64,000 bases of DNA from Bacillota bacterium (lineage in GTDB: Bacteria > Bacillota > Thermincolia > Thermincolales > UBA2595): contig DAHVYW010000012.1 of NCBI GenBank assembly GCA_027324025.1, positions 4,178 to 68,177 on the forward strand, in the 5' to 3' direction. The position numbers were made by a program, and so were the translations under genes. Below the pieces are notes generated by a model. It was not told where the DNA came from, did no database searches, and saw only the letters and a program-made list of their open reading frames with translations. This document shows positions 14,812 through 61,122 of this stretch, piece after piece. Every line of letters starts with the position of its first letter. The stretch's first letter is position 1.

Positions 14812-15741
14812 TCACTGAGTTATTTCATAAATTATGTTCTTCCAGGTCTGTTCGGACACAAAAAGGTGTTTTAAATCACCTTTAAAATACTCATTTCCCG
14901 GCAGTGTTGTTTTACACATATGCCCCAGGTCCATCTGCCTGCTAATATGAAAAAGGCTAATCATCTGTTGGGTAGAAAAGTTGGTCCGGACATCATGGGT
15001 AAAAATCCACAGCAACTCGGGTATCTCCAGCAGCATCTGCGGCCGTATCACCTGGGAAGCCACGGCCTTTACCACATCCGCATCATCGGTGCGGATCCCG
15101 GCCGCTGTTTGTTCAAAGGCTTCCAACATATTTATTTCATCACCGTTAACCTGCAAAGCACCGATAACATCACTCAATTTTTTTAGGGCGGGTTGATTCA
15201 CGTGAACGAAGTTCGGGATAGTTATTTCAAATTTCCTCTCCAAAAAGGCCCTGACAGCATCTCTTCCGCTCCGTTGGTATAGGTCCTGAACAGTAACCTG
15301 TTCGTCTTCCAGGTTTACGATGTTACCGTTATTTGTCACAGTATGTAAGGGTATTACTACAATCGCCGCTTGTTTGGTTTTTCTGTTAAATCCGGTGACC
15401 GATATAACCTTCAGTCTGTCCCCATCTGACCAGATATACATAATATTAATAGAGTCCAATGAGCGATTCAGGGCAGACTTCGCTTGTTCCAGAGAATACA
15501 AAGGCACAGTGTTCTCAGGTTTCTGACGACTCTTTTTAATTACAGTTATTCCGGGACTATACCAAAAGTCTTTTTCAGTTCTTAGCCAGTGGCCCATCGT
15601 AGGTGGTATTTCTATTGTTTGACTCCGGTATTGTTTCATCTGGGTTTCCTCCGGTACGGCCGTTTGCACAAACAAAGCCGCCAGGGTCGCGAAAAAGATT
15701 CCGGAAACCATTAGCTGGGTTTTAAAGTTTTGCCATTTCAC
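14812..15741 (-). CDS. Membrane-anchored LCP-like protein lacking the canonical catalytic motifs
   Basis: Probable GTG start at 15741 behind AAGGAGG. The segment FLERKFEITIPNFVHVNQPALKKLSDVIGALQVNG parallels the LCP block LLGVPIHNYIETNFAGFENIIDTLGGVTLDV. RSDT and PRD are replaced by WSDGDRL and IPLHT. Confidence 0.5.
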   Translation of the reverse strand: MKWQNFKTQLMVSGIFFATLAALFVQTAVPEETQMKQYRSQTIEIPPTMGHWLRTEKDFWYSPGITVIKKSRQKPENTVPLYSLEQAKSALNRSLDSINIMYIWSDGDRLKVISVTGFNRKTKQAAIVVIPLHTVTNNGNIVNLEDEQVTVQDLYQRSGRDAVRAFLERKFEITIPNFVHVNQPALKKLSDVIGALQVNGDEINMLEAFEQTAAGIRTDDADVVKAVASQVIRPQMLLEIPELLWIFTHDVRTNFSTQQMISLFHISRQMDLGHMCKTTLPGNEYFKGDLKHLFVSEQTWKNIIYEITQ

Positions 15742-15805
15742 CGAAAAATCCTCCTTTTGGTCAAACAATACTATTATTGGCCGCCGGAGGTAAAAAAATA
15801 CAAAA

Positions 15806-15919
15806 GTGAACTCGTTCAGCTAAAGCTGAACATCGAAACTTCAGTGGGGGACTCTACCCCCACTGAAGCAGAAAAGTGGAAACTCCACCTAATAGAAGGT
15901 GGAGTCTTGGAATTGGGAT
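15806..15919 (+). repeat. 114-bp triple-hairpin intergenic repeat, copy 1 (forward)
   Basis: GTGAACTCGTTCAGCTAAAGCTGAAC...GGTGGAGTCTTGGAATTGGGAT. Four near-identical copies occur in the window. Confidence 0.95.
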
Positions 15920-15951
15920 CAAGACTGCCCTTTTGGGACAGCCCTGTTAGT

Positions 15952-16296
15952 TTATTTCCTTTTCAATTGTTGATATATCACTTCTGCCAAACCAAAACTC
16001 CTGTTGTCAGCCGCTTTCAGGCTTATCTCCTGGTCAAGCATGCCCTGAAATATTTTTTCCCCCATAGTTTCTTCTAATAATCCACCCTTTTCCACAGTTT
16101 CCCGCATTTTGGAAAACATCTGGTAAATGAAGAGGGCTTCAAATTGTTTGGCTGCTTCTTTAAGCTGTTTGTCTTCCTTGGACGCAACAGCTTTATCAAG
16201 TATCTGTTTAAATTCTTGATCAGCAGAGTTAACCCGGTTTTCGTTTCTATAGTCCTCCGCAGATGCCTTAGGGCCGTCAATCCGCATTAATTCCAC
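15952..16296 (-). CDS. Flagellar rod-binding protein (FlgJ N-terminal-domain-like)
   Basis: 114 aa: AAKQFEALFIYQMFSKMRETV...EKIFQGMLDQEISLKAA...GLAEVIYQQL. Confidence 0.75.
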   Translation of the reverse strand: MELMRIDGPKASAEDYRNENRVNSADQEFKQILDKAVASKEDKQLKEAAKQFEALFIYQMFSKMRETVEKGGLLEETMGEKIFQGMLDQEISLKAADNRSFGLAEVIYQQLKRK

Positions 16297-25280: not shown

Positions 25281-25292
25281 GAATGTTTTTTT

Positions 25293-25405
25293 ATCCCAAT
25301 TCCAAGACTCCACCTTCTATTAGGTGGAGTTTCCACTTTTCTGCTTCAGTGGGGGTAGCGTCCCCCACTGAAGTTTCGATGTTCAGCTTTAGCTGAACGA
25401 GTTCA

Positions 25406-25406
<1 letters not shown>
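25293..25406 (-). repeat. 114-bp triple-hairpin repeat, copy 2 (reverse)
   Basis: One substitution versus copy 1, in the loop of the middle hairpin. It ends on the first base of the atpC stop codon. Confidence 0.95.
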
Positions 25407-32675: not shown

Positions 32676-32962
32676 ATTTTCACCCTCTTTATGGGGCTTC
32701 TGGAAAGAACATCATCAGAAACCAGTGCGAGTAACAGTCTTGTACAGTATATTGAGCCACAGGAGAAAATATTTCTTAATTCTCAAAATTTTTCGAACTC
32801 GTTGCCCTTATAAAAAGACATAAAGATATCCCCCCCCATCAATGCGGAAGGTCTATATTTTATGCCTGATGTCAGAGCAAAATTTACAACGTACTCTATA
32901 TTCTCTGTTTTTTTACAATTTCCTTTTTTTTGAGGATAATTTTTAAATTTTTTTTCACAAAT

Positions 32963-34123
32963 TTACTGTGTTATGAACTCTCGGGGTTTGCTGCCCCCCA
33001 GGTTACAGAAATACTTAAGCCCCGCGGCTATTCTGGCGCACGCTTTGCCATCCCCATAAGGGTTGACCGCATTTGCCATTTTATCATATTGGGTCCTGTC
33101 TTCCAAAAGGGTTTGGCAGGCATTGAAAATCGCATCCCTATTTGTACCAACCATCTGCACGGTGCCAGCATCTATTGCCTCCGGCCTTTCGGTTGTGTCT
33201 CTTAGCACTAACACCGGTTTTCCTAAAGACGGTGCTTCTTCCTGAAGCCCTCCTGAATCGGTTAAGACTAAATAAGCCTTGTTCATTAGGTTGACCATCG
33301 GCGCGTATTCCAGCGGGTCGATAAGGTGTACCCTCGGCAGCCCTCCCAGAACCGACTCAACGATTTGTCTGATCTTTGGATTTTTATGGACCGGAAAAAC
33401 CACCTCCACATCACTGTGTTTTTCCACTACAGCCCGCAACGCCCCATATACGTTGCGCATCGGTTCGCCCAGGTTTTCCCGGCGGTGAGTGGTAACTACT
33501 AGAACTCTGCTTTTAGTGTAATCAATTGCGTCCAGGACAGGATTGTTGAAGGCATATGAATCCTTCACAGTTGCCAGTAAAGCATCAATAACCGTATTCC
33601 CGGTAACTAGTATGGATTCCGGGTTTACCCCTTCTTTTAATAGGTTAGATTTTGCGGTTACCGTTGGTGCAAAGTGAATATCGGCAATGGCACCCGTTAG
33701 TCTCCTGTTCATTTCTTCGGGAAACGGTGAATATTTGTTCCCGGTACGCAGGCCGGCCTCAACATGGCCGACCTTGATTTGGCGGTAAAATGCCGCTAAA
33801 CCGGCTACAAAAGTAGTAGTAGTATCCCCATGTACCAAAACAATATCCGGTGCTGCCTCGTCAAGGATTTCGCCTAGTCCGGTCAAAGCCCTGGTCGTAA
33901 TTTCATATAATGTTTGATTAGGCAGCATTATATTTAAATCATATGCCGGTGTTATCCGAAATAATTCCAAAACCTGGTCCAGCATTTCCCGGTGTTGAGC
34001 CGTTACAGCAACACTGCACCTGATTTGGTCAGGATGTCTTTCCAGTTCTTTGACAAGGGGGGCCATTTTTATTGCCTCCGGGCGAGTTCCGAAAATAGCC
34101 AGGACATTAAGAATACTCATCAT
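32963..34123 (-). CDS. wecB: UDP-N-acetylglucosamine 2-epimerase (non-hydrolysing)
   Basis: LAIFGTRPEAIKMAP...VHGDTTT...TDSGGLQEEAPSLGKPVLVLR. Confidence 0.93.
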   Translation of the reverse strand: MMSILNVLAIFGTRPEAIKMAPLVKELERHPDQIRCSVAVTAQHREMLDQVLELFRITPAYDLNIMLPNQTLYEITTRALTGLGEILDEAAPDIVLVHGDTTTTFVAGLAAFYRQIKVGHVEAGLRTGNKYSPFPEEMNRRLTGAIADIHFAPTVTAKSNLLKEGVNPESILVTGNTVIDALLATVKDSYAFNNPVLDAIDYTKSRVLVVTTHRRENLGEPMRNVYGALRAVVEKHSDVEVVFPVHKNPKIRQIVESVLGGLPRVHLIDPLEYAPMVNLMNKAYLVLTDSGGLQEEAPSLGKPVLVLRDTTERPEAIDAGTVQMVGTNRDAIFNACQTLLEDRTQYDKMANAVNPYGDGKACARIAAGLKYFCNLGGSKPREFITQ

Positions 34124-34138
34124 TCACCTCGTAATCCA

Positions 34139-35386
34139 TTAACTATACAATGGGAATTGGTTGCACAATTCATGAACCATATTTTTCGCTTTTGCCAGGT
34201 AAACATCGTTATCTCTATGGGCAATCGAGGTGTCGATAATCTCGGCCACCAGTTCCATCGCTTCTTCTTTCATGCCCCTGCTGGTAGCTGCAGGAGTCCC
34301 AATTCTGATGCCGCTTGTAATCTGGGGGCTTTGGGGGTCAAAGGGGATTGAGTTTTTATTCACCGTAACACCCACTCTATCTAGAATCTTTTCGGCTTCT
34401 TTCCCTGTAATATCCTTGTTTCGCAAGTCAACAAGCATTAGGTGGTTGTCCGTTCCACCGGAAACGAGATTAAAATTCCTCTTTGTTAACGCGCTGGCCA
34501 GAGCCTTGGCATTTTTCACAACCTGTTCCTGGTAATCCTTAAATTCTGGGGTCAGCGCTTCCTTGAGCGCCACGGCCTTTGCTGCAATGACATGCATTAA
34601 GGGGCCTCCCTGGATGCCGGGGAAAACTGACTTATCTATTGCTGCCGCATATTTCTGTTTACAGAGAATCATGCCTCCCCTGGGCCCGCGAAGGGTCTTA
34701 TGGGTAGTTGTTGTAACAAAATCAGCGTGAGGGACAGGTGTGGGATGGAGACCTACGGCAACTAGACCGGCAATGTGGGCCATATCCACCATCAGCATGG
34801 CTCCAACCTCTTCCGCTATCTCCTTAAGCTGAACAAAGTCAATTATTCTAGGATAGGCGCTGGCCCCGGCGACAATCATTTTAGGTTTATGCTGAAAAGC
34901 CAGGGCAAAAACCTTCTCGTAATTAATCCTGCCTGTATCTTCTTCAACTCCGTAAGCAGCAAAGTTGTAGTACTTCCCGGACATATTGACAGGGCTGCCG
35001 TGGGTCAGATGCCCTCCGTGGCTGAGATTCATACCCAGTACTTTATCACCGGGCTTCAACATTGCGAAATATACGGACATGTTGGCCTGAGCCCCCGAAT
35101 GGGGCTGAACATTGGCGTGTTCGGCATCAAAGAGCTTTTTTGCCCTTTCTATAGCCAGGGTTTCCACAATATCAACATATTCACATCCGCCGTAATAGCG
35201 TTTGCCGGGGTACCCTTCGGCATATTTGTTGGTCAGCACGGCTCCCTGAGCAGCCATTACTGCCACACTCACAAAGTTTTCTGAGGCAATAAGTTCAATA
35301 TTGTGTTGCTGTCTATGTTTTTCTTTCGCGATTGCTTCGGCAACTTCCGGGTCAATTTGTTTTACAAAATAAAGTTCATCATCCAC
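34139..35386 (-). CDS. glyA: Serine hydroxymethyltransferase
   Basis: PLP-lysine block [15 protein letters not shown]. Confidence 0.97.
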
Positions 35387-35441
35387 TCTGTGTTCCTCCC
35401 CTAATTATCTACAGCCTTCACCGAGATAAAGCTCAAAGGCC

Positions 35442-35903
35442 TTAAGGATCGTTATTCGAAGTTTCAATATCGGATATCTTCTGTACCCTGCGGGCATGAC
35501 GTCCACCTGCAAAGTCGGTTTCCAACCAAATATTCACAATATCCCTGGCCAAACCGGGGCCTATGACCCGCTCGCCCATGGTAAGGATATTTGCATTATT
35601 ATGCTCTCGGGAAGCCCTGGCCGAAAAAGTATCATGACACAGAGCAGCCCGGATCCCCGGAAGCTTGTTAGCCACAATCCCTATGCCTATGCCTGTCCCG
35701 CAAATCAATATCCCTCTGTCAAAATGGCCGTCCCGGACAGCCCGGGCTACCTCCAGAGCAATGTCAGGGTAGTCAACGGATTCTTCGGAAAACGTGCCAA
35801 AATCTTTAAAATCGTACCCTTTTTCCTGAAGCAGCTTTCTAATTTCTTCTTTCAGTTTGAATCCTCCGTGGTCACAACCTACTGCCAGCTTTAAACTGCC
35901 CAC
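35442..35903 (-). CDS. rpiB: Ribose-5-phosphate isomerase B
   Basis: LAVGCDHGGFKLK...ILICGTGIGIGIVANK. Confidence 0.93.
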   Translation of the reverse strand: MGSLKLAVGCDHGGFKLKEEIRKLLQEKGYDFKDFGTFSEESVDYPDIALEVARAVRDGHFDRGILICGTGIGIGIVANKLPGIRAALCHDTFSARASREHNNANILTMGERVIGPGLARDIVNIWLETDFAGGRHARRVQKISDIETSNNDP

Positions 35904-36021
35904 TTGCTCTTCCTCCTGCCAGCGATATTCGTATTTCTACATAACTTTACATCTTCTACATGAAGCGTTGTTTCCCTTTTGGAAATATCTGCCTATAGAA
36001 TAAGAATCTACCTTGTATTAT

Positions 36022-36504
36022 TTACGGGGCCTGTTTTAATATCTTATGAAAAGCTATGTCAACAAGTTCCTCAATTTCCCGGGCACATTGTTTGTAGATG
36101 TCAACCGGCAGACCAAAAGGGTCAGAAATGTCCAAACCCGATTTGCCGGCAAATTCGGCAAGGGTAAATACCTTTGAGGCTTCACCCGGGTACAACGCAA
36201 CCAGGGTCCGCTTGTGATTTCCGGTCATGGTTAGGATTAAATCGGATTCCCTAGCTGTCTCATGGCAAAACTGTCTGGCCCTATGGCCTGTCAAGTCTAT
36301 ACCGGCCGCCCCCATTACTTCCACGGCCCGGGGCGAGGCAGGGCTGCCCGGACCGGCTGCCGCGAGGCCTGCCGATGCCAGTTCAATGTTCCCGACACCG
36401 TCAGGGTGGGCCTTCAGCCATTTTCTGGCCAGCGCTTCGGCCATACTGCTGCGGCATGTATTTCCGGTGCAAACAAAAACAACTTTCAAGAATACCACCC
36501 CCAC
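36022..36504 (-). CDS. ywlE: Low-molecular-weight protein phosphatase (YwlE-type arginine/tyrosine phosphatase)
   Basis: CX5R(S) P-loop VFVCTGNTCRSSMAE, DP motif ISDPFG, and synteny with rpiB/sua5. Confidence 0.85.
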   Translation of the reverse strand: MGVVFLKVVFVCTGNTCRSSMAEALARKWLKAHPDGVGNIELASAGLAAAGPGSPASPRAVEVMGAAGIDLTGHRARQFCHETARESDLILTMTGNHKRTLVALYPGEASKVFTLAEFAGKSGLDISDPFGLPVDIYKQCAREIEELVDIAFHKILKQAP

Positions 36505-36537
36505 TGTTGACTGCCCATTGTTATTATGTACATGGGG

Positions 36538-37608
36538 CTATATGTATATTACCTTGTTGCCGGCGGCCTTTTTTAGCCGGTTCATTATCGCTATTCCAAT
36601 TCCGCTCTCGGGATAGCCTTCGGCAATGATGACGTCAACATCCTCTTCGTCCAAATACCGCAGTCCATAAAAGAGATTTTGTGCCACCGTTTCAAGTCTG
36701 GCGCGGCTGCCCACGGTAAAAACCTCGTCACTGCAGTAACCCCTGGCTGTTTCGGTGGAAGCCAGCACCCCTGCCTTTTGGTTCTTGGCGCGATAATCTG
36801 CAATAAGTTCGGCAACCTTTTCAAATATAACAGTATAGTCTTCTCCGGTTACAACAACTACATCGGCCCTAGGGGAGTAATGGGTATATTTCATCCCGGG
36901 CGACCTGGGTGTCCCAAGGGACCCCTTATCCCCAGCTGAGTTTTCCATTTCCACACGTCCGAGAATGCCTTCAATATCGTCCCTGGTGACACCACCGGGC
37001 CTAAGAATAACCGGTGGCTCCGAAGTAAGGTCAAGTACCGTTGATTCCAAGCCTACCCGGCAGGCACCACCGTCCACAACCATGTCGATTTTCCCCGTCA
37101 GGTCCTGTAATACATGCTGAGCCGTTGTAGGGCTAGGCTTACCCGAGGTATTAGCGGAGGGGGCGGCCAGGGGCACCCCGGCAGCTTTGATCAGTTCAAG
37201 GGCCACCGGATGATCCGGCATCCGGACAGCCACCGTGCTCAAACCGGCCGTCACCCCATCGGGGATTCCCGGTTTTTTGGACAGGACTACCGTTAACGGC
37301 CCAGGCCAAAAAGCCTCCATCACCCTTTGGGCCGGTACTGTAACGTCATCGGATAAATCGTAGACCTGGCTGACATCGGAAATGTGAACAATTAACGGGT
37401 TGTCGGCCGGTCGGCCTTTGGCTTTAAAGATGGCGGCTACCGCTTCGGAATTCGTGACATTAGCCCCTAACCCATAAACGGTTTCCGTCGGGAAGGCAAC
37501 CAGGCCACCATTCCGCAGTATCGTGCCGGCCTCACTGATAGCACCTTTTGACGGATCAGCCGGGTCTATTTTAATATATTTTGTTTCCTTGCCTTTCAAA
37601 AATAACAC
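36538..37608 (-). CDS. tsaC: L-threonylcarbamoyladenylate synthase (Sua5/YwlC, TsaC domain + Sua5 C-domain)
   Basis: GGLVAFPTETVYGLGAN...SANTSGKPSPT. Confidence 0.92.
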   Translation of the reverse strand: MLFLKGKETKYIKIDPADPSKGAISEAGTILRNGGLVAFPTETVYGLGANVTNSEAVAAIFKAKGRPADNPLIVHISDVSQVYDLSDDVTVPAQRVMEAFWPGPLTVVLSKKPGIPDGVTAGLSTVAVRMPDHPVALELIKAAGVPLAAPSANTSGKPSPTTAQHVLQDLTGKIDMVVDGGACRVGLESTVLDLTSEPPVILRPGGVTRDDIEGILGRVEMENSAGDKGSLGTPRSPGMKYTHYSPRADVVVVTGEDYTVIFEKVAELIADYRAKNQKAGVLASTETARGYCSDEVFTVGSRARLETVAQNLFYGLRYLDEEDVDVIIAEGYPESGIGIAIMNRLKKAAGNKVIYI

Positions 37609-37673
37609 CTCTTACAAAACTCCGGCTTTTTGTTTGCAACCTCCAAGTAGATTTGCGTGCTCAGTTCTCCCTT

Positions 37674-37787
37674 ATCCCAATTCCAAGACTCCACCTTCTA
37701 GAAGGTGGAGTTTCCACTTTTCTGCTTCAGTGGAGGTAGAGTCCCCCACTGAAGTTTCGATGTTCAGCTTTAGCTGAACGAGTTCAC
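37674..37787 (-). repeat. 114-bp triple-hairpin repeat, copy 3 (reverse)
   Basis: Three substitutions versus copy 1: two in the loop of hairpin 3 and one in the stem of hairpin 2. Confidence 0.95.
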
Positions 37788-47565: not shown

Positions 47566-47682
47566 AAGGCTGTTCAAAAACAAGTATGGCAGGGAAGCCG
47601 CTTTACCGAAACTGAAAACGTACCTATTGTACGCCCTCTTGTTAATAAGCCTTCCGAGCTTTACAAAGTTTTTCAACAGCCT
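47566..47682. repeat. Long hairpin repeat (family with 55501-55622) between fba and tal
   Basis: Arms AAGGCTGTTCAAAAAC / GTTTTTCAACAGCCT. The internal AAGTATGGCAGGGAAG resembles GAGTATAGCAAGGAAA at 55517. Confidence 0.7.
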
Positions 47683-51763: not shown

Positions 51764-51877
51764 GTGAACTCGTTCAGCTAAAGCTGAACATCGAAACTTC
51801 AGTGGGGGATTCTACCCCCACTGAAGCAGAAAAGTGGAAACTCCACCTTATAGAAGGTGGAGTCTTGGAATTGGGAT
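51764..51877 (+). repeat. 114-bp triple-hairpin repeat, copy 4 (forward)
   Basis: Two substitutions versus copy 1, both in hairpin loops. Confidence 0.95.
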
Positions 51878-51880
51878 AAA

Positions 51881-51922
51881 AGGCTGTTCAACACGCCGCT
51901 AAACAACGTTTTTAAACAGCCT
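51881..51922 (-). terminator. Hairpin after pyrG (candidate terminator)
   Basis: Minus strand AGGCTGTT-26 nt-AACAGCCT followed by TTTT. The arm sequence is shared with the 47566 and 55273 repeats. Confidence 0.4.
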
Positions 51923-51934
51923 CAGAGCTTGGGA

Positions 51935-53599
<1,665 letters not shown>

Positions 53600-53617
53600 C
53601 TAAAAACTACCTACAAC

Positions 53618-53646
53618 ATTTTATCCTCTGGTAGATAGCCTGTCAA
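53618..53646 (-). promoter_or_regulatory. Putative sigmaA promoter of pyrG
   Basis: Minus strand TTGACA-17 nt-TAAAAT, ~65 nt upstream of the pyrG ATG. Confidence 0.5.
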
Positions 53647-53690
53647 GGGGAAGCAGAGCGTTGAAAGGTTGCAGCCCCCTATCAACCCAA

Positions 53691-53745
53691 ACTCAGGAAA
53701 GTAATAACTTTCCTGAGTATTAAAAATTGCGTGGAATTACCACGC
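53691..53745 (-). terminator. Two tandem hairpins after rpoE
   Basis: Minus strand GCGTGG-TAATT-CCACGC followed by AATTTTT. Then ACTCAGGAAAG-TTATTA-CTTTCCTGAGT followed by TTGGGTT. Confidence 0.6.
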
Positions 53746-53751
53746 ATTTTA

Positions 53752-54051
53752 TTAATTATCCCAGTCTTCGTCGGGGTGATTGGGACGAAGCCCCTTGTCC
53801 GGCATCCATTCTCTTAATCCCCATACACCCTGTCCTACATGGATAAACCTCCCGTCGAGGTTTAATTCGGTGTGTATACCTGCCATAATATGTTCCCTGT
53901 CTTTTCCCGTAATAGGCTTAATGGCCATAACTTCTTCAAACAGTTCCCGGAAATATAAGGGAGCCCCTTTGGCTTTAAGAATTTCATGGGCCAGGTCGGC
54001 TTCGGACATATGTGGGTTAACCTGTCCAGTAGTGAGGTTAGCCATTAACAT
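53752..54051 (-). CDS. rpoE: RNA polymerase delta subunit (HARE-HTH domain only, almost no acidic tail)
   Basis: ADLAHEILKAKGAPLYFRELFEEV...HTELNLDGRFIHVGQGVWGLREW. Synteny rpoE-pyrG matches Bacillus. Confidence 0.8.
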   Translation of the reverse strand: MLMANLTTGQVNPHMSEADLAHEILKAKGAPLYFRELFEEVMAIKPITGKDREHIMAGIHTELNLDGRFIHVGQGVWGLREWMPDKGLRPNHPDEDWDN

Positions 54052-54293
54052 TCACCTTCCCTCGCATTGATAAATGGTAAAGCTATAATTAACAAAATAA
54101 ATTATTCGACTCTGTGGGAGTATTTTCCTGCCTAATCGCTAAAAATTTGTCTGAAATTGTTGGAATCAGGGAGCACCCGTAAAAAGAGTTTTATTTTAAT
54201 AAAAAGTTAATATTTTTTTCATCCAAATGTCACAAATTTTTATTAAAATTAACATATTAACCAAAAAAACGACAAAAAGGCAGGAGTGTTTTA

Positions 54294-54482
54294 ATGAAAC
54301 AAGAAAAGATTCTCCTGAGAATTCAACAACTGCGTCGGAACCTGGCCGCCCTCGTAACAATCAACGGAAGTTTGACCAGCCAGGCCGTTCTAAGGGCAAG
54401 CCATAAGCTGGATGTAGCAGTAAACGCCTATTACCGGGTTCTGATAAAAAAAAATCATAAGAGAAAAAAAGGGTTGTTTTAA
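54294..54482 (+). CDS. Spo0E-family aspartyl-phosphate phosphatase-like protein
   Basis: 62 aa: ILLRIQQLRRNLAALVTINGSLTSQAVLRASHKLDVAVNAYY (Spo0E-like helix-hairpin pattern). Confidence 0.6.
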   Translation: MKQEKILLRIQQLRRNLAALVTINGSLTSQAVLRASHKLDVAVNAYYRVLIKKNHKRKKGLF

Positions 54483-54526
54483 AAGTTCATTTGACACCGT
54501 ATTTAATAATGTTTTTTTCCTTACGT

Positions 54527-54593
54527 TGTCTCAAAAGAGGCAGTCTTACTAAGTTTTGACATAGGGAAGGGGCAGGAATATGCCTGCCCCTTC
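54527..54593. repeat. Solo arm of the TGTCTCAAAAGAGGCAGTCT repeat plus GC hairpin (convergent terminator)
   Basis: 54527-54546 TGTCTCAAAAGAGGCAGTCT. The hairpin is GAAGGGGCAGG-AATATG-CCTGCCCCTTC at 54566-54593. Confidence 0.65.
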
Positions 54594-54611
54594 TGGGACA
54601 ATCCCCTTTTT

Positions 54612-55035
54612 CTATTCATCTGTAACTGTTACCTTATTAATGGGCTGACCTTTCATCGGGTAATTCAGGGATTTGTAGCCCAGGGGGGGTGCCCAAACGG
54701 GAACGGCAGTGGTGGTCCGGGATATTCCATTGACTGCGAGATTAACCCCAACAAGCACGAAAGGGGCTCCCTCTCTATGGCCCACCGGGGACCTAACACA
54801 GGTGGCAGCCAGTTCTTCATTGTTTATGAACCCCAACCCCACCTTGACGGAGTACACACGGTTTTTGGCAGGGTAATTGAAGGTATGGATTTGGCCGACC
54901 GGATTAACCCCGGGGACAAGATTAAAAACCGCTATTAGCCAGCTTCTCGAAATTTGCCACGGTATTGGGGGCATCTTTGTCAAAAAATTCAATCACGATT
55001 TTTCCCTTGTCCATTTCAATAATACCCTTTTTCAT
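54612..55035 (-). pseudogene. ppiB: Cyclophilin-type peptidyl-prolyl isomerase disrupted by inversion of its central 285 bp
   Basis: Minus strand 55035..54925 encodes [37 protein letters not shown], then a stop. Minus strand 54638..54612 encodes NKVTVTDE*. The core is encoded on the plus strand (next feature). Confidence 0.85.
54639..54923 (+). other. Inverted internal segment of the cyclophilin gene
   Basis: My plus-strand translation: [95 protein letters not shown]. It is bounded by TTAAT (54637-54641) and ATTAA (54921-54925). Confidence 0.85.
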
Positions 55036-55044
55036 AGTACCTCC

Positions 55045-55155
55045 TTAAAGTTTGCCTTTAACCACCAGCCAAACCGCTAGACCAATCGGCAGAGCAAAGG
55101 CGATTAAAAAGTTAACTGTCTGCCACATAAACTTGGAGCCCTCAAAACCATACAT
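55045..55155 (-). CDS. Candidate 36-aa hydrophobic peptide upstream of the cyclophilin gene
   Basis: MYGFEGSKFMWQTVNFLIAFALPIGLAVWLVVKGKL. RBS AGGGAGGG lies 7 nt upstream. The stop is 9 nt before the ppiB ATG. Confidence 0.4.
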   Translation of the reverse strand: MYGFEGSKFMWQTVNFLIAFALPIGLAVWLVVKGKL

Positions 55156-55272
55156 AAGTAAACCCTCCCTGTAATCACCTATATAATCAGAAAGTTTGCG
55201 GATAGCAAACCTCCTACCTTCTCGCAGCCGCCAGGCGTAGAGAAAAACGGCACCCTTCACCTGCCCGATGTT

Positions 55273-55622
55273 GAGGCTGTTCAGTGCGCAGGTTCTTAGC
55301 GCTTAGAACTGTGGCCTACCCCTTGCGGGTAAAAGCGAGTATGGCTAGGAAGCAATTTTACAACGGCTGAAGGCGTACTCTTTTGTACGTCGAAGTCGTT
55401 GTAAAATTGCTGAGTGCGGAGCCGTTGCCGCCTCAGCGGCTTACGGATTCCGGCCTACTCCTTGCGGGTACAACGCCAGACGACGCTTTTCAACAGCCTT
55501 GAGACGGTTCAAAAACGAGTATAGCAAGGAAACAATTTTACAACGGCTGAGGGCGTACTCCATGTACGTTGAAGTCGTTGTAAAATTGTTGACAAAGCTA
55601 GACGAAGTTTTTCAACCGTCTC
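55273..55622. repeat. Two tandem ~170-bp units of nested hairpin repeats downstream of argS
   Basis: Unit cores are 55338-55425 and 55513-55598 (GAGTATRGCNAGGAARCAATTTTACAACGGCTGARGGCGTACTC...GTCGTTGTAAAATTG). The outer arms are GAGACGGTTCAAAAAC / GTTTTTCAACCGTCTC. Confidence 0.85.
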
Positions 55623-57309
55623 ACATGGATTCGGGGGCGGTGAGGCCTAGTAACTCTAACGCCCTTTTGACCACAGTTTGTACACTCTTTACGAGAACGA
55701 TGCGGGCATTCTGCAATTCCCGGTCATCAATCATTACCCGGTGGCTGTTGTAGAAACTGTGGAACAGCCCCGCCAGTTCATGGGCATAGCGGGCCAACCG
55801 GTGCGGTTCAAGGTTCACGGCGGCTTCCGAAATTTCGGTGGGGAAATCCACCAGTTTTCTCATTAATTCCAATTCGGCCGGTTCTTTTAGGAGGGCCAAA
55901 TTACAGGACCCGGCCAGGGGAACGGCTCCGCCCCTTTCCTCCAACTGGCGGAAGATGCTGCATATCCTGGCATAGGCGTATTGGATATAATAAATTGGAT
56001 TTTCGGTGGACTCGGACTTGGCCAAATCCATATCAAAATCAAGGTGGCTGTCCGGGCTCCGCATAACAAAGAAATACCTGGCCGCATCCTTGCCAACTTC
56101 AGCCACCAGGTCTTCCAGGGTGACAAATTCACCGGACCGCTTAGACATCCGGATTATTTCCCCACCCTTAAACAGTCGGACAAGCTGCATGATGACAATG
56201 TCGAGGCTGTCAGGGTCATAACCCAGAGCCTTCATAGCGCCCTTGAGCCTTGCGACGTGGCCGTGATGGTCGGCTCCCCAAATATTGATGACCCATTTAA
56301 AACCCCGGTCAAACTTGTTTTTGTGGTAAGCGATATCTGCCGCAAAATATGTAGGGGTGCCGTTGCTTCTGACCACAACCTCGTCTTTTTCCTCGCCGAA
56401 GGCGGTGGTTTTCAGCCAGAGAGCACCTTCATGTTCGTAAATGTATCCCTTGTCCCGCAGTTCGTCAAGCACCGCATTGACAGCACCCGACTCATGCAGG
56501 GACTGCTCGCTGAACCATATATCATATTCAACACCAAATTGGTGAAGAGTATTTTTAATTGCCTGAAGTTTTTCCTCCAGGGCATACTTCACAAAAATTT
56601 CTTTTCGCCGGTCGGGCACCATATCAAAATACTTGTTACCCGGATCAAGGGCGGTGATTCTTTTCACGGTATCAATGATATCCTGCCCGTGATACCCGTC
56701 CTCGGGGAAAACAACATCCTGCCCCATCTGCTGAAGGTACCGGGCCTCCAGGGATTTCCCAAAATTCTCTATTTGATTGCCCGTGTCGTTTATGTAAAAC
56801 TCCCTGGTTACGGCAAACCCCGCCGCTATCAGCAGGTTGGCCATGGTGTCCCCCAAAGCGGCGCCCCTGGCATTTCCCATATGCAGCAAACCAGTAGGAT
56901 TGGCGCTGACAAATTCCACCTGAACCATCTTACCTTGCCCGGTGTCAGTGTTTCCGTACTGCTCCCCTTGTTCTTCAACTTGCAGTAGTACTTCGTGGAC
57001 CCAGTTATTGTTAAGATAAAAATTAATAAACCCAGGTCCGGCAATTTCTATTCTGGCAACCCAAGAGCCTTGGGTGTTGATATTGTTTTTCAGCGTCTCG
57101 GCTACCTGCCTCGGTGACATTTTGGCCTGGCGGGCCAGCAGCATGGCTATATTTGTGGCAAAATCACCGTGCTCCTTTTCTCTGGGCACCTCCAGGACAA
57201 ATTCGGGAAGGCCTTCGTAGTTTAGTGTTCCCGTATTTTTTGCGCTTTCCGCAGCAGAATTAATTAAACTTATAATCCGGCCTTTAACCATCTCAAGAAC
57301 AGACTTCAT
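55621..57309 (-). CDS. argS: Arginine--tRNA ligase
   Basis: Start at MKSVLEMVKGRII (ATG 57309). HIGH-like HMGNARGAALGD. KMSKS-like IRMSKRSGEF. Confidence 0.95.
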   Translation of the reverse strand: MKSVLEMVKGRIISLINSAAESAKNTGTLNYEGLPEFVLEVPREKEHGDFATNIAMLLARQAKMSPRQVAETLKNNINTQGSWVARIEIAGPGFINFYLNNNWVHEVLLQVEEQGEQYGNTDTGQGKMVQVEFVSANPTGLLHMGNARGAALGDTMANLLIAAGFAVTREFYINDTGNQIENFGKSLEARYLQQMGQDVVFPEDGYHGQDIIDTVKRITALDPGNKYFDMVPDRRKEIFVKYALEEKLQAIKNTLHQFGVEYDIWFSEQSLHESGAVNAVLDELRDKGYIYEHEGALWLKTTAFGEEKDEVVVRSNGTPTYFAADIAYHKNKFDRGFKWVINIWGADHHGHVARLKGAMKALGYDPDSLDIVIMQLVRLFKGGEIIRMSKRSGEFVTLEDLVAEVGKDAARYFFVMRSPDSHLDFDMDLAKSESTENPIYYIQYAYARICSIFRQLEERGGAVPLAGSCNLALLKEPAELELMRKLVDFPTEISEAAVNLEPHRLARYAHELAGLFHSFYNSHRVMIDDRELQNARIVLVKSVQTVVKRALELLGLTAPESM

Positions 57310-57310
57310 C

Positions 57311-57733
57311 TTATACCTCCCTGACGGTAAGTGACAACACGTTATCACTTATTTTCTCATTTTCAACTTCCAATTCATATTCGAGATTAATACTTCCCCC
57401 TCCGTCTGTCAAGTTAACATCCACCTTGGACGACGTAACAGCCATAAATATAACCCCGAAAGGGGTGATATAGTTTCCCCGATACCGCAGTCCCCGTTCG
57501 AAAACATGCCTTTGCTGGGAGGTTCCGGTCCTGTTTAAGGTCACCCGGGTCGACTCGGCCTTCAGGAAGGTAGTGGTTCCAGACATGCCTGTGACCTCTG
57601 ATTCGTTGTAAATGATGAAGTATGCCCCGTTTTTTAAGTAATAGCTCCCCTTGGTGACTAATTCCTGAACGTCCACTTCACCAAACTCGTTGACCTGGGT
57701 TCCGGTAACCGAAATTAAAACCTCTTTGTTCAT
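57311..57733 (-). CDS. DUF1934 (YwiB-like) beta-barrel protein
   Basis: Start at MNKEVLISVTG. Lies upstream of argS, as B. subtilis ywiB does. Confidence 0.75.
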   Translation of the reverse strand: MNKEVLISVTGTQVNEFGEVDVQELVTKGSYYLKNGAYFIIYNESEVTGMSGTTTFLKAESTRVTLNRTGTSQQRHVFERGLRYRGNYITPFGVIFMAVTSSKVDVNLTDGGGSINLEYELEVENEKISDNVLSLTVREV

Positions 57734-58078
57734 GACCCAACTACCTTTCAACCCAATCTATTAAAATATTATACCAGAAAAACCCCATCGCTACACCAAT
57801 TAATTTCCTCCCCGCCAATTCCCGATATATAAAGCATTAACCGCTCGCCGGCAAAAATCGTCCGCTTAGCGCCAGCCGGCGGCACCCGGATCCAAATTGG
57901 ACCGCTAGAATATACTTATTGACCACTAAACGGGAAAATGTTGCGTTTAACCTGAAAACAGGTGCAATAAATTGTAACCCCCTATAGAATATAATCAAAT
58001 AGGAGTCCAGAGACCTAGAGTCCAGAGACCGGCACGAGTTGCCGGTCTTAGACTTTAGGCCTTTTTTGTTTATAAAGT

Positions 58079-58139
58079 CCGGAGGCATTATTGCCCAGAG
58101 GCTGATACTAATCGTATCAGCCTTTTCTTTTGCCTCCGG
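58079..58139 (+). promoter_or_regulatory. Nested hairpin with terminator-like core in the leader of the MFS gene
   Basis: Outer stem CCGGAGGCA / TGCCTCCGG. Inner stem GGCTGATAC-TAAT-CGTATCAGCC followed by TTTTCTTTT. Confidence 0.4.
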
Positions 58140-58243
58140 GCACAGTGTCAAATCGCAATAATTTTTGGGGGGATTGCCAATGTGCTAGACCAAGAAAGCC
58201 AATCGGACTTATACTATAAAAATTTAAGATGGAGGTGTTCTTT

Positions 58244-59181
58244 ATGAGTGAACAGACTAATACGAGAGGTTGGATTGTTACTTTTCAGGTACGGCAATTA
58301 ACCTCTGTCTCGGAGTGCTGTACGCATGGAGCGTAATTGGCAGAGCCCTTACAAAGCAGTGGCACTGGTCGGCATTTAAGGCTAACACACCTTATATGGT
58401 TGCCTGTGGTGTATTTGCCATTACGATGGTAATCGGCGGGAGGATGCAAGATAGAATAGGACCAAGGATTGTGGCATCCCTTGGTGGTGTGTTTGCAGGC
58501 GCCGGATTAATCATTTCCGGTTTGGCCAATCCGGACAGTATGCTCCCGATGATCATTGGTTTTGGGATTCTGGCAGGCACCGGAATGGGATTTGGTTATG
58601 GCGCCGCCACCCCGCCTGCGCAAAAGTGGTTCCCGCCCTACAAAAGAGGTTTAGTTACCGGTCTGGTTGTATCCGGTTACGGCTGCGCATCAGTATACTT
58701 ATCTCCACTTACCTCAAAACTTCTTGGTTTGTATGGGATCAACAAAACCTATATGATTCTCGGCATTTTCTTCCTGGTCACCATCGTCTTATTTTCCCAG
58801 AACCTGAAAAACCCGCCGCCTGGTTATATCCCTGCCGGTATGCCCGCAATCGGCAGCGCTAAGCACATCGCAGCCGGACACCAGTATGACTGGCATGAAA
58901 TGATGAAGACCCCGCAGTTCTATCTGCTCTGGTTAATGTTCGGTTTCGGTTCCTTTGCCGGTTTGATGATGATTTCAAGCTTGGCTAAGATAGGAGTCCT
59001 ACAGAATCCTAATACAATCCTGGCTTCTATCTTCGTAGCCGTTCTGGCAGCCGGAAATGCCGGCGGCCGGGTAGCGGCAGGTTTTCTCTCCGACAAATTG
59101 GGCCGCATGCGCACAATCTTGTTGAGCAGTGGTTATCTGCTTACTGCAGGCAGGCATATCCTTCCTATGCAAGGCGCCTAA
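58244..59181 (+). pseudogene. Oxalate/formate-antiporter-type MFS transporter, frameshifted and 3'-truncated
   Basis: ATG 58244 behind GGAGG gives MSEQTNTRGWIVTF. The frame then shifts by one T in the T4 run 58282-58285 into SGTAINLCLGVLYAWSVIG... The ORF ends after ~310 aa (about 8 TM helices) versus ~400+ for the family. Confidence 0.7.
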
Positions 59182-59251
59182 AAGCATCGTTGTCAGCAGG
59201 GAAATTCCTGTCACGGTTAACACGTTAAGCAAAGACTAATGCCTTTCCCGA

Positions 59252-59286
59252 ACCGCACCGGAGATTTCCTCCGGTGCGGTATTCTT
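59252..59286 (+). terminator. Hairpin terminator after the MFS remnant
   Basis: ACCGCACCGGAG-ATTTC-CTCCGGTGCGGT followed by ATTCTT. Confidence 0.55.
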
Positions 59287-59503
59287 ACCAGTTAACCCCG
59301 TGTTTCTACCGTTCACCTGCGGTTTTCGCCCATTGGCGGTCAAAAAACTACCATTAAGGAAAAAAACGGTGCTTTCTACCACAACAGAGTTAATAATTAA
59401 GTTGGATATTTGTCTAAATCTTACCAAATTTAGCTCTTTCGGGGGTGAGGATTTACACCGGTTGAAAAATTAAGTCCTAGGTTTTTTCTTGGGGGGAGAA
59501 ACG

Positions 59504-59752
59504 ATGGATCAAAGACGTGAAATCTCGGAACATTCCTTACTGTCTTTGGAAAGACAGACTGCCAGGTTAATCGAGATTTTGAAGGTTGCTGTGATTGTAA
59601 TTTTAACCGTCTTATTGTCAATTCCGGTAATTGGTTCCCTATTGGGGGTCGGCAGAGGCGGGCACTATACCGGTTCGGCCTGGAGCGGAGCTTGGCTTTA
59701 CGGACTTTTGGCAGTTTATACGGTAAATTACTGGTGGAGCAATGTTGAATGA
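59504..59752 (+). CDS. Small two-TM membrane protein, unknown function
   Basis: ATG 59504 behind GGGGGGAG. The stop overlaps the next start (ATGA). Confidence 0.5.
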   Translation: MDQRREISEHSLLSLERQTARLIEILKVAVIVILTVLLSIPVIGSLLGVGRGGHYTGSAWSGAWLYGLLAVYTVNYWWSNVE

Positions 59753-60738
59753 TAAGCAAACGGGTTTTGAATACCTTAATGGCACTTATCATTTCCCTTG
59801 CTCTGGCAACCGCAAACCTGGCAGGTTTATACTATCTTGACAAATCAATAGGCCAAGGAAACGTCCAGGTTATCCAAACGGCCTTGGACATTAACGCCAG
59901 GAATTTTACTCAGTGGTCATTAGGCGTTATTCCAAATATCAATACCGTCCCGGCAGCAGTGGCTGAACAGGAGAATATGCGGGTATGGGCCCAACCTGGT
60001 GATTACGCCGGACCGGCTGTCATGGGCATAACCTTCGCCATGGCAGCAATTATGTGGTTTATCTGGATCGGCTATTACCTCGGGTTTCCCGGCAACATGG
60101 TCTTTATAAAGCAGCGTTTGCTCGGTCTCTTGGCAGCATTAGTTTTAACTATCCTGACCAATCTTATGTTTGCCCGCATGACTACCGAGTTTACCAGTAC
60201 TAATACTGTCCTGGGTGCGGCCTTCGGCCATCTTTCGCTGGGCCTTAATGCCGGGGGGATTTGGTTCATTGCTGTACTGTCCCGGCTCGGTGTCGGCCAG
60301 CATGAGTCAAGGCCTACGATTCCGGTAAGCCAGCTGAAAGACGAGAAGCTTTCCGCACTGCTAATGAGTTTGGTAATTGCTTTTGTTTTTGAAGGCGTCT
60401 TCAGGAAGGCAAACCTGGCATTACCCGGTTTGTCAATTGACTTCGCGGTCTGGGCTGTAACATTTATCGCGTTCTTCAATTACTACGGTTATATTCCTTC
60501 CAAATGGTTTAAGGGTGAAAGGCCTTTCGGAATCGTCCTAACCGTTTGCGGGACCGCTGCCACCATTATTATTTGGGTAGTTATTCAACACCTGACCGGC
60601 GGGGCCATCGGTACGGCCTTGCTAACTGCTTCCGGGAGCCCAGGCCTGTCCCTAATGCTTTCCTTCTGGCTGCTGTTCTGGCTCTCGGTTTCTAACCAAT
60701 CCGGAAAATCAAGCCCCGTCAGGATAACAAGATATTAA
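59749..60738 (+). CDS. Polytopic membrane protein (~8-9 TM), unknown function
   Basis: 329-aa hydrophobic ORF, translationally coupled to the preceding ORF. Confidence 0.6.
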   Translation: MISKRVLNTLMALIISLALATANLAGLYYLDKSIGQGNVQVIQTALDINARNFTQWSLGVIPNINTVPAAVAEQENMRVWAQPGDYAGPAVMGITFAMAAIMWFIWIGYYLGFPGNMVFIKQRLLGLLAALVLTILTNLMFARMTTEFTSTNTVLGAAFGHLSLGLNAGGIWFIAVLSRLGVGQHESRPTIPVSQLKDEKLSALLMSLVIAFVFEGVFRKANLALPGLSIDFAVWAVTFIAFFNYYGYIPSKWFKGERPFGIVLTVCGTAATIIIWVVIQHLTGGAIGTALLTASGSPGLSLMLSFWLLFWLSVSNQSGKSSPVRITRY

Positions 60739-60787
60739 TCATCTAGAGGCTGTCTCAAAAGTTAATGTGAGACACCCGGAATGAAGG

Positions 60788-60821
60788 AAACTCAGGCATT
60801 CATTTGATAGCCTGAGTTTTG
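60788..60821 (+). terminator. Intrinsic terminator of the two-gene membrane operon
   Basis: AAACTCAGGC-12 nt-GCCTGAGTTT followed by TG. Confidence 0.65.
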
Positions 60822-60915
60822 TCATATAATTGGCGTAGTCTTAAAGTAAGAGCTCCCATATTTTCCCCTCAAGTTGTCTTAGAAGAGGCACAGCATTCCT
60901 GTTTCTTTTTTACCT

Positions 60916-61122
60916 TGTCTCAAAAGAGGTAGTCTTTCTTAAGTTTTTACAGAATATAAAGGAAACGGCAGGTATGTTCCGGAGAGCGAGGCTGACATCC
61001 GCCAGCCCGCGACCCGCCTATGCGGGAGCGGTTTGCTGGCTGAGTTGTTGCTCGCTCGCAGGAATGTACCTGCTGTTTCCTTGTTTGAGTAACCAAAGCA
61101 AGAGACTGCCTCTTTTGAGACA
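60916..61122. repeat. 207-bp long palindromic element with 20-bp terminal inverted repeats
   Basis: TGTCTCAAAAGAGGTAGTCT (60916-60935) against AGACTGCCTCTTTTGAGACA (61103-61122). Inner arms are GGAAACGGCAGGTATGTTCC and GGAATGTACCTGCTGTTTCC. Confidence 0.85.

Follow-up and report, generated by a model that had tools for sequence, protein, structure and literature searches.

A widely distributed Bacillota repeat family of probable transposase-less IS200/IS605 derivatives

Transposons of the IS200/IS605 family such as IS608 and ISDra2 insert 3' of a transposon-adjacent motif (TAM) of 4-5 nt (TTAC and TTGAT, respectively), have hairpin-bearing ends with a similar transposon-encoded motif (TEM) closing the right end, and show neither terminal inverted repeats nor target duplication; a bias toward the lagging-strand template has been reported for the family (PMC5027513). 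The Geobacillus stearothermophilus element ISGst2 has the TAM TTTAT and the TEM TTCAC, which differ from each other at positions 3 and 5 (PMC10055086); it was excised on either template, and gene-less derivatives resembling palindrome-associated transposable elements (PATEs) were found with the elements of this species (Meers et al., 2023, PMC10055086). PATEs were defined in the archaeon Haloquadratum walsbyi by four features, namely the absence of terminal inverted repeats, near-terminal palindromes, the absence of target duplication, and a length too short for a transposase gene, and their parent IS605-type transposons were identified in the same organism (Dyall-Smith et al., 2011, PMC3119063).

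We describe a hairpin-rich repeat present in four copies in the window, by which we mean the whole stretch of 64,000 nt that was analysed. The repeat shows all four defining features of PATEs, together with a TAM, a TEM, subterminal hairpins and an exact empty site, and on this combination each copy is very probably a non-autonomous IS200/IS605-type element, that is, a PATE. On this reading the family, new and widely distributed, belongs to a known class, that of IS200/IS605 derivatives without a transposase, and is neither a new RNA nor a new regulatory system. The original prediction had reported the lack of terminal inverted repeats and of target duplication, had concluded that the repeat is not a classical MITE, and had recognised no named family; both absences are borne out below, as is the exclusion of a classical MITE, and it is precisely these absences that are a hallmark of IS200/IS605 transposons and PATEs.

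With ISGst2 the family shares the TAM/TEM pair, subterminal hairpins on one strand, insertion 3' of the TAM without duplication, the existence of derivatives consisting of ends only, and a Bacillota host range, this being a comparison of motifs and descriptions rather than of end sequences. It differs from ISGst2 in having no tnpA, tnpB or iscB partner in the searched loci, in accepting any base at TAM position 3, in having T after the insertion point in 97% of copies, and in its hosts, which are mostly of anaerobic Clostridia-like classes. The TTGAT motif of ISDra2 is also used by 11 copies of the present family. Unlike IS608, in which the end hairpins are alike, the two end hairpins here differ in sequence, a condition documented for some other IS200/IS605 members; in addition, the lagging-strand-template bias of these elements is not seen here, and no clear rule of pairing between guide bases and the motif emerged. 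As in the H. walsbyi PATEs, a short terminal oligonucleotide is conserved, recent homogeneous copies occur beside older heterogeneous ones, and there are internal deletions and insertions of other small repeats; the archaeal elements are unrelated in sequence.

The 114-mer proposed originally occurs exactly four times in the window (0 expected from 100 shuffles), and a covariance-model search of the window with filters off recovered no further copy. Coordinates and mismatch counts of the copies agree with the original prediction, as does the distribution of the six substitutions among them, five of which are in hairpin loops and one of which changes G-C to G-T in the middle stem. The window copies are mutually 97-99% identical; when each was aligned with 200 nt of flank, the flanks were unrelated among the four and the boundaries sharp. 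All four lie between co-directional minus-strand genes, two in each orientation, consistent with the dispersal between genes in both orientations that had been noted. Repeat and copies are real, yet the 114-bp unit is not the mobile unit, which in the window is 112 nt long; the last two bases (AT) of the 114-mer belong to the conserved host target. The repeat had also been written on its bottom strand, and the true top strand is the complement. The features are as follows, with hairpins numbered as in the original prediction.

15806-15919, plus strand: copy 1 as 114-mer, 0 mismatches, between a flgJ-like gene (15952-16296, minus strand) and a LytR-like gene (14812-15768, minus strand)
15806..15917, top strand on minus: mobile unit of copy 1, 112 nt, reading CCCAATTCC...GAGTTCAC, boundaries placed by analogy with the exact empty site
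15918..15922, minus strand: TAM of copy 1, TTGAT (ATCAA on plus), host sequence abutting the left end
15882..15905, minus strand: left-end subterminal hairpin of copy 1 (hairpin 3), ACTCCACCT/AGGTGGAGT, beginning 12 nt past the TAM
15839..15868, minus strand: internal hairpin of copy 1 (hairpin 2), 12 bp, CTTCAGTGGGGG/CCCCCACTGAAG
15814..15831, minus strand: right-end subterminal hairpin of copy 1 (hairpin 1), GTTCAGC-TAAA-GCTGAAC, 3 nt ahead of the TEM
15806..15810, minus strand: TEM of copy 1, TTCAC (plus strand GTGAA), closing the right end; the next base is host T (plus-strand A15805)
25293-25406, minus strand: copy 2 as 114-mer, 1 mismatch, between atpC and a DUF1779 gene
25295..25406, top strand on plus: mobile unit of copy 2, 112 nt, antisense to the genes
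25290..25294, plus strand: TAM of copy 2, TTTAT
37674-37787, minus strand: copy 3 as 114-mer, 3 mismatches, between prmC and tsaC (Sua5)
37676..37787, top strand on plus: mobile unit of copy 3, 112 nt
37671..37675, plus strand: TAM of copy 3, CTTAT, with one departure from TT-N-AT
51764-51877, plus strand: copy 4 as 114-mer, 2 mismatches, between pyrG and sppA
51764..51875, top strand on minus: mobile unit of copy 4, 112 nt, in the T-run after a hairpin downstream of pyrG
51876..51880, minus strand: TAM of copy 4, TTTAT on minus

The top strand of copy 1 is the minus strand of the window and its flanking genes are also on the minus strand, so that the top strand would be co-transcribed with the flgJ-like and LytR-like genes. 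The ends of the unit (CCCAATTCC... and ...GAGTTCAC) are not complementary. Open reading frames that cross copies are not common to them, which bears out the original view that the repeat is non-coding, and the element is too short to encode a transposase; unit length across the family is modally 108-112 nt, with a maximum of about 248 nt. There are no tRNA genes in the window.

The mode of insertion is seen in one nucleotide-exact empty site, in Desulfosporosinus, a different genus from that of the window organism. The copy at L087:1571-1692 (minus strand) lies within an open reading frame (L087:460-2577, minus strand) for a PrpR-type sigma-54 activator, in which it is in frame and read through, adding 39 residues ahead of the AAA+ domain and leaving the reading frame intact; five homologous proteins lack exactly 39 residues at this point. 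On the bottom strand the empty alleles of L112 and L113 read ...CAACGA|ATCAAATTCGCC, and the filled allele of L087 reads ...CAACGA, then 117 nt from GTGAAC to CTTGG, then ATCAAATT, with the remaining flanks ~97% identical to those of L112 and L113. Filled and empty alleles differ by exactly 117 nt with zero host bases duplicated or lost, so that both the A preceding GTGAAC and the AT-N-AA following the unit belong to the host. In agreement, the flank profile of 59 copies is conserved only at the host A on one side and at AT-N-AA on the other, and it contains no target duplication longer than 1 nt and no signal of terminal inverted repeats. The mobile unit on the bottom strand is thus GTGAAC...TTGG(G), inserted between host A and host AT-N-AA. 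A second filled/empty pair, L018 and L078, is a cross-species comparison too diverged for junctions to be read at the base level, and agrees with this model. The in-frame copy recalls the Rickettsia palindromic elements (RPE), which likewise are read through inside protein-coding genes; here this is a single case and not a habit of the family, and it follows from a unit length that is a multiple of three and one open frame.

Read on the top strand, the site in L087 is TTGAT, then CCAAG......GAGTTCAC, then host T, and the empty allele already has TTGAT; insertion is therefore directly 3' of TT-N-AT, and the motif stays outside the element. Among 98 copies, a set screened for TT-N-AT ahead of the left-end hairpin, the TAM is TTTAT in 72 (73%), TTGAT in 11, TTAAT in 10 and TTCAT in 5, and position 3 varies even inside one subfamily. 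Three of the four window TAMs fit TT-N-AT, the fourth being CTTAT. TTCAC is present in essentially all copies, which is partly fixed by the search pattern, and is also kept in most of the copies found by the covariance model only. The base after TTCAC is T in 218 of 224 distinct copies (97%; L001-L233 together with the window), far above base composition, and in all four window copies (window positions 15805, 25407, 37788 and 51763). The effective target therefore looks like a hexamer, TT-N-AT followed by T. We know of no report of a requirement for host T after the insertion point in the IS200/IS605 family. AGTGA or TGAA on the bottom strand had been considered as the target, which explained the stop-codon frames described below, and is refuted by the exact empty site, in which GTGAA belongs to the element.

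Both strands of the element fold into three hairpins (z ~ -7), in accord with the three stem-loops per copy originally described. When 40 members with three hairpins were aligned, the paired fraction of cells was 96.5%, compared with 40-48% in slid controls; eight pairs carry double changes (A-U has become G-C in 19 of the 40 sequences, for example), and the observed covariation score was reached by 0 of 500 shuffles. The stems thus co-vary across taxa, with sequence conservation in the loops and the right end, and a search of Rfam, which the original prediction had proposed, gave no match at gathering scores for the window or for 18 long-variant loci, and only noise at E values up to 10. Compensatory changes affect 3 of 10 pairs in the left-end hairpin (15882..15905) and 5 of 12 in the internal hairpin (15839..15868); hairpin 1 is invariant in the 40-member set, its sequence having been prescribed by the search pattern. 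G-T mismatches (22) and A-C mismatches (24) are similarly common, and hence give no sign that one RNA strand is the selected form. Candidate guide bases are CAAG, TAAG or CGAG before the left hairpin and CGAT before the right one, with no clear rule for pairing with TAM or TEM. A long-range helix ACTC/GAGT proposed by RNAalifold was dropped, as the compensation is inside hairpin 3 and not with the 5' end. CsrA-type GGA decoys (GGA motifs not conserved), integron attC-like core sites (no fit to RYYYAAC/GTTRRRY and no arrays) and a CRISPR-like solitary repeat (34 nt, GTGAAC...ATCGAAAC, with an apparent 3' handle; no arrays, and the handle varies) were likewise rejected.

The family is a mosaic in which hairpins 2 and 3 vary by lineage and some members are without one hairpin. 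The end that carries the right-end hairpin is nearly invariant across bacterial classes and is the most conserved part of the family, a conservation partly imposed by the search pattern. Long members have a module of 70-140 nt with several hairpins in the apex of the middle hairpin (L044:3185-3440, L084:52-235 and L099:3160-3346); this module, common to unrelated insertion sites and without an Rfam match, resembles another small element lodged inside the first. At L220:2300-2335, a solitary right-end hairpin lies between GTGAACTC and GAGTTCAC, forming a perfect palindrome to which the end pattern fits on either strand.

Stop codons and operon junctions are a safe and heavily used niche for the family. 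Where the upstream gene is co-oriented with the bottom strand, half of the copies overlap or adjoin its stop codon. The target on the gene strand, A|ATAAA, contains TAA, and for this reason many copies are on stop codons: of 20 long open reading frames reaching the element, 18 terminate at the TGA within A-G-TGA-AC and 0 use the frame that would close at TAA in the loop of hairpin 1. Insertion converts xAA TAA to xAG TGA and so leaves the protein unchanged, since AAA/AAG, GAA/GAG and CAA/CAG are synonymous and the element brings the stop. When the unit was removed in silico from 11 stop-overlapping copies, 9 regained identical C-terminal residues and a native stop at an unchanged codon position, the two exceptions having atypical or mis-delimited ends, and the position of the stop codon is the same with and without the element in the L018/L078 pair and in the comparison of atpC. 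At copy 2 the element end gives ...TAG TGA on the gene strand directly at the atpC stop; GAG TAG TGA... reconstructs to GAG TAA TAA A..., and the corresponding sequences in relatives are GAC TAA A and CCA TAA A. Many copies are exactly between the stop codon and the following ribosome-binding site. Copies in the opposite orientation, among them window copies 1 and 4, typically have as their target TTTAT(T) the T-run that follows a terminator hairpin. AATAAA at TAA stops may be a preferred landing pad, and TAA stops may be systematically rewritten to TGA. A SECIS-like hairpin following UGA was considered for these sites and rejected, as both orientations occur, the host genes are unrelated and the TGA is part of the element.

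The repeat family occurs across many classes of Bacillota. A scan of one genome per species for the exact pattern of the hairpin-1 end gave at least 101 matches, and a metagenome scan at least 120; hosts among the matches listed include at least 12 Desulfosporosinus species, Acididesulfobacillus, Desulfotruncus, Dethiobacter, Halothermothrix and other Halanaerobiales, Oscillospiraceae/Clostridiaceae MAGs, and a Paenibacillus. No copies were found in plasmid, phage and viral collections, and no sequence match in the literature searched. The window organism is a relative of Thermincola (PyrG 83-90% identical to that of Thermincola spp.), and the nearest copies outside it are ~92% identical to the window copies. 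In ~72 kb of syntenic sequence from the closest relatives there is no copy, indicating recent gain in the window organism: prmC and tsaC are 13 nt apart in a relative versus 188 nt in the window, and the atpC and pyrG-sppA sites are empty in relatives. A recent expansion of the family has taken place in the window organism. Public short-read assemblies of this very strain match the window at 100% identity and break off within copies 3 and 4 (contigs L102, equal to window 51855-60996, L103, and L107, equal to window 32712-37701), as multicopy repeats break short-read assembly; all of these contigs end in copies and so carry no data on polymorphism.

The element would correspond to the left and right ends of an IS200/IS605 transposon fused with no gene between them. 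On the top strand the order is TAM (TT-N-AT), 12 nt, left-end hairpin, linker, internal hairpin, right-end hairpin, GAG, TTCAC (TEM) and host T, with the left end on the hairpin-3 side and the right end on the hairpin-1 side. By analogy with characterised elements, we infer mobilisation in trans by a Y1 HUH transposase (TnpA) acting on the top strand: a TnpA encoded elsewhere in the genome would bind both subterminal hairpins on single-stranded DNA and excise the top strand as a circle, which would then be pasted 3' of another TT-N-AT. No gene for TnpA (Y1) or TnpB was identified in the window or beside ~230 copies in 1.8 Mb, a search that comprised clustering of 1,046 neighbouring ORFs, Pfam annotation of recurrent and adjacent ORFs, and tblastn with two TnpA probes. 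The ORFs after right-end-only copies (both strands) and the genes between inverted pairs are ordinary cellular genes only, the latter including transketolase, an oxidoreductase and the like.

The top strand showed no bias to the lagging-strand template among 109 copies in which the leading strand was assigned from GC skew and from the majority direction of genes, two proxies that agree in 100 of the 109 cases. By GC skew, the top strand is on the G-rich side in 51 copies and the bottom strand in 58 (not significant), and where both proxies agree the ratio is 48:31 for the bottom strand. Such a bias is a tendency of the IS200/IS605 family and not part of its definition. Between co-directional genes, the top strand is antisense in 38 copies versus 17 in the other orientation. 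This excess runs against a lagging-strand bias and is better explained by selection, because the minority orientation puts hairpin-plus-T-run structures in the transcript.

The properties that led the original prediction to compare the repeat with BOX, REP and ERIC elements are genuine, in that it behaves like a selfish interspersed repeat and is small, intergenic, hairpin-rich, multicopy, mosaic and present in both orientations, as are REP/BIME, BOX, ERIC and Correia repeats; the TAM/TEM pair, which none of these has, the target motif and the exact empty site fit a PATE instead. REPs are short single palindromes that have a conserved 5' tetranucleotide and are tied to RAYT genes, themselves bordered by inverted REPs, whereas the present element has three hairpins and distinct ends; Correia elements and classical MITEs have the inverted termini and duplications that are absent here, and BOX and ERIC have no defined target motif. 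A repeat of REP/BOX/ERIC type could be kept by the host for a role at the RNA level, such as protection of mRNA 3' ends, intercistronic processing or termination, and would account for the 3' untranslated or intercistronic positions of copies, the co-varying stems, the terminator-like matches on the transcribed strand of copies 1 and 4, and the local orientation bias (38:17) between co-directional genes. We consider such a role quite improbable as the explanation of the repeat, given that the copies occur in both orientations (2:2 in the window), that the symmetric G-T and A-C mismatches favour no single RNA strand, and that absence from the orthologous sites in relatives means that the flanking genes do not need the copies; furthermore, exact insertion beside a pentanucleotide is explained by transposition and not by function. 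The same mismatches and the two orientations leave the proposal of a dispersed structured RNA module unsupported. Terminator-like matches (hairpin plus T-run) are on the top strand only, and are therefore transcribed only in copies 1 and 4, with poor T-runs; the orientation that occurs more often is free of such features. The suggestion that copy 1 is the terminator of the flhO-flhP-flgJ-like unit is accordingly weak: in addition to the poor T-runs and the 38:17 excess of the other orientation, the LytR-like gene begins 37 nt past the copy with no promoter-like site between. A native-looking atpC terminator follows copy 2 (25280-25246, minus strand), and many copies in the antisense orientation lie inside operons. 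Side effects of the copies on transcripts are possible, and copies may have a partial polar effect, which is not the reason for the presence of the element.

The conserved right end invites a reading in which each copy is a dispersed guide-RNA gene, its right-end half being the tail of a TnpB/IscB omega-RNA scaffold that, transcribed on the top strand into the flank, would guide a nuclease encoded in trans to re-cut the empty site and thereby preserve the copy. In favour of this, the right-end boundary of IS605-type elements marks the end of the omega RNA, which reads on into the adjoining sequence, and the nuclease employs the same TAM. In the present family no other part is nearly as conserved between classes as the right end, and in copies 1 and 4 the top strand is the transcribed one. 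Set against this, there is no tnpB or iscB near any copy and no Rfam match, the top strand is antisense in the majority of copies between co-directional genes, and conservation of the right end is equally expected of a transposase binding site and is partly imposed by the search. Moreover, the right end offers only ~65 nt, and known TnpB/IscB omega-RNA scaffolds are longer. A guide-RNA gene in place of a transposable element is thus very improbable. As a speculation, it is unlikely, though worth stating, that the conserved right-end half is a working omega-RNA tail and that the hundreds of copies form a dispersed guide library for a TnpB or IscB encoded once elsewhere; if true, this would be a transposase-less, nuclease-less element that enforces its own retention. 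Other kinds of mobility that leave no terminal inverted repeats or duplications, namely rolling-circle transposition like that of IS91/ISCR/Helitrons, an IS110- or IS607-type recombinase, or a RAYT acting on REP-like hairpins, would be in line with the lack of a transposase near copies, the lack of replication-strand bias and the unlikeness of the two end hairpins. These we regard as barely credible, because distinct left and right ends are combined with a TAM/TEM pair identical to that of a characterised IS200/IS605 element, the element is not a single REP palindrome, and no gene was found to be bracketed by inverted copies; an IS91-like boundary, with GAAC as target, implies a unit of 116 nt, not divisible by three, versus the in-frame insertion of 117 nt.

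As IS200/IS605-type PATEs, the copies illustrate how a derivative of a single-strand transposon can spread harmlessly through operons of essential genes, because the gene-strand target contains TAA and the element brings its own TGA. No Rfam model matches the family, its copies fragment short-read assemblies, and they could pass for a structured RNA, a terminator or a signal of stop-codon context; with boundaries and target known, the family can be masked in annotation and used as a strain marker. More than 200 sites with a flanking TAM, spread over many Bacillota classes, are a lead to the cognate TnpA, and to TnpB if any, proteins of current interest as compact genome-editing tools.

A second, unrelated family of repeats of ~115 nt is present in the window in three copies that are 68-90% alike (47576-47682, 55331-55499 and 55511-55621), two of them in tandem directly after an argS-like ORF (55621-57348, minus strand). 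The 26-nt terminal hairpin motif of this family also occurs as a partial copy (51897-51922) that adjoins copy 4 of the 114-mer, and the TTTAT target of copy 4 is the T-run after that hairpin. Between 54612 and 55155, gene calls on contig L102 give short fragments with matches to peptidyl-prolyl isomerase, for which relatives have an intact gene of 141 aa; this region may be a pseudogene or a calling artefact.
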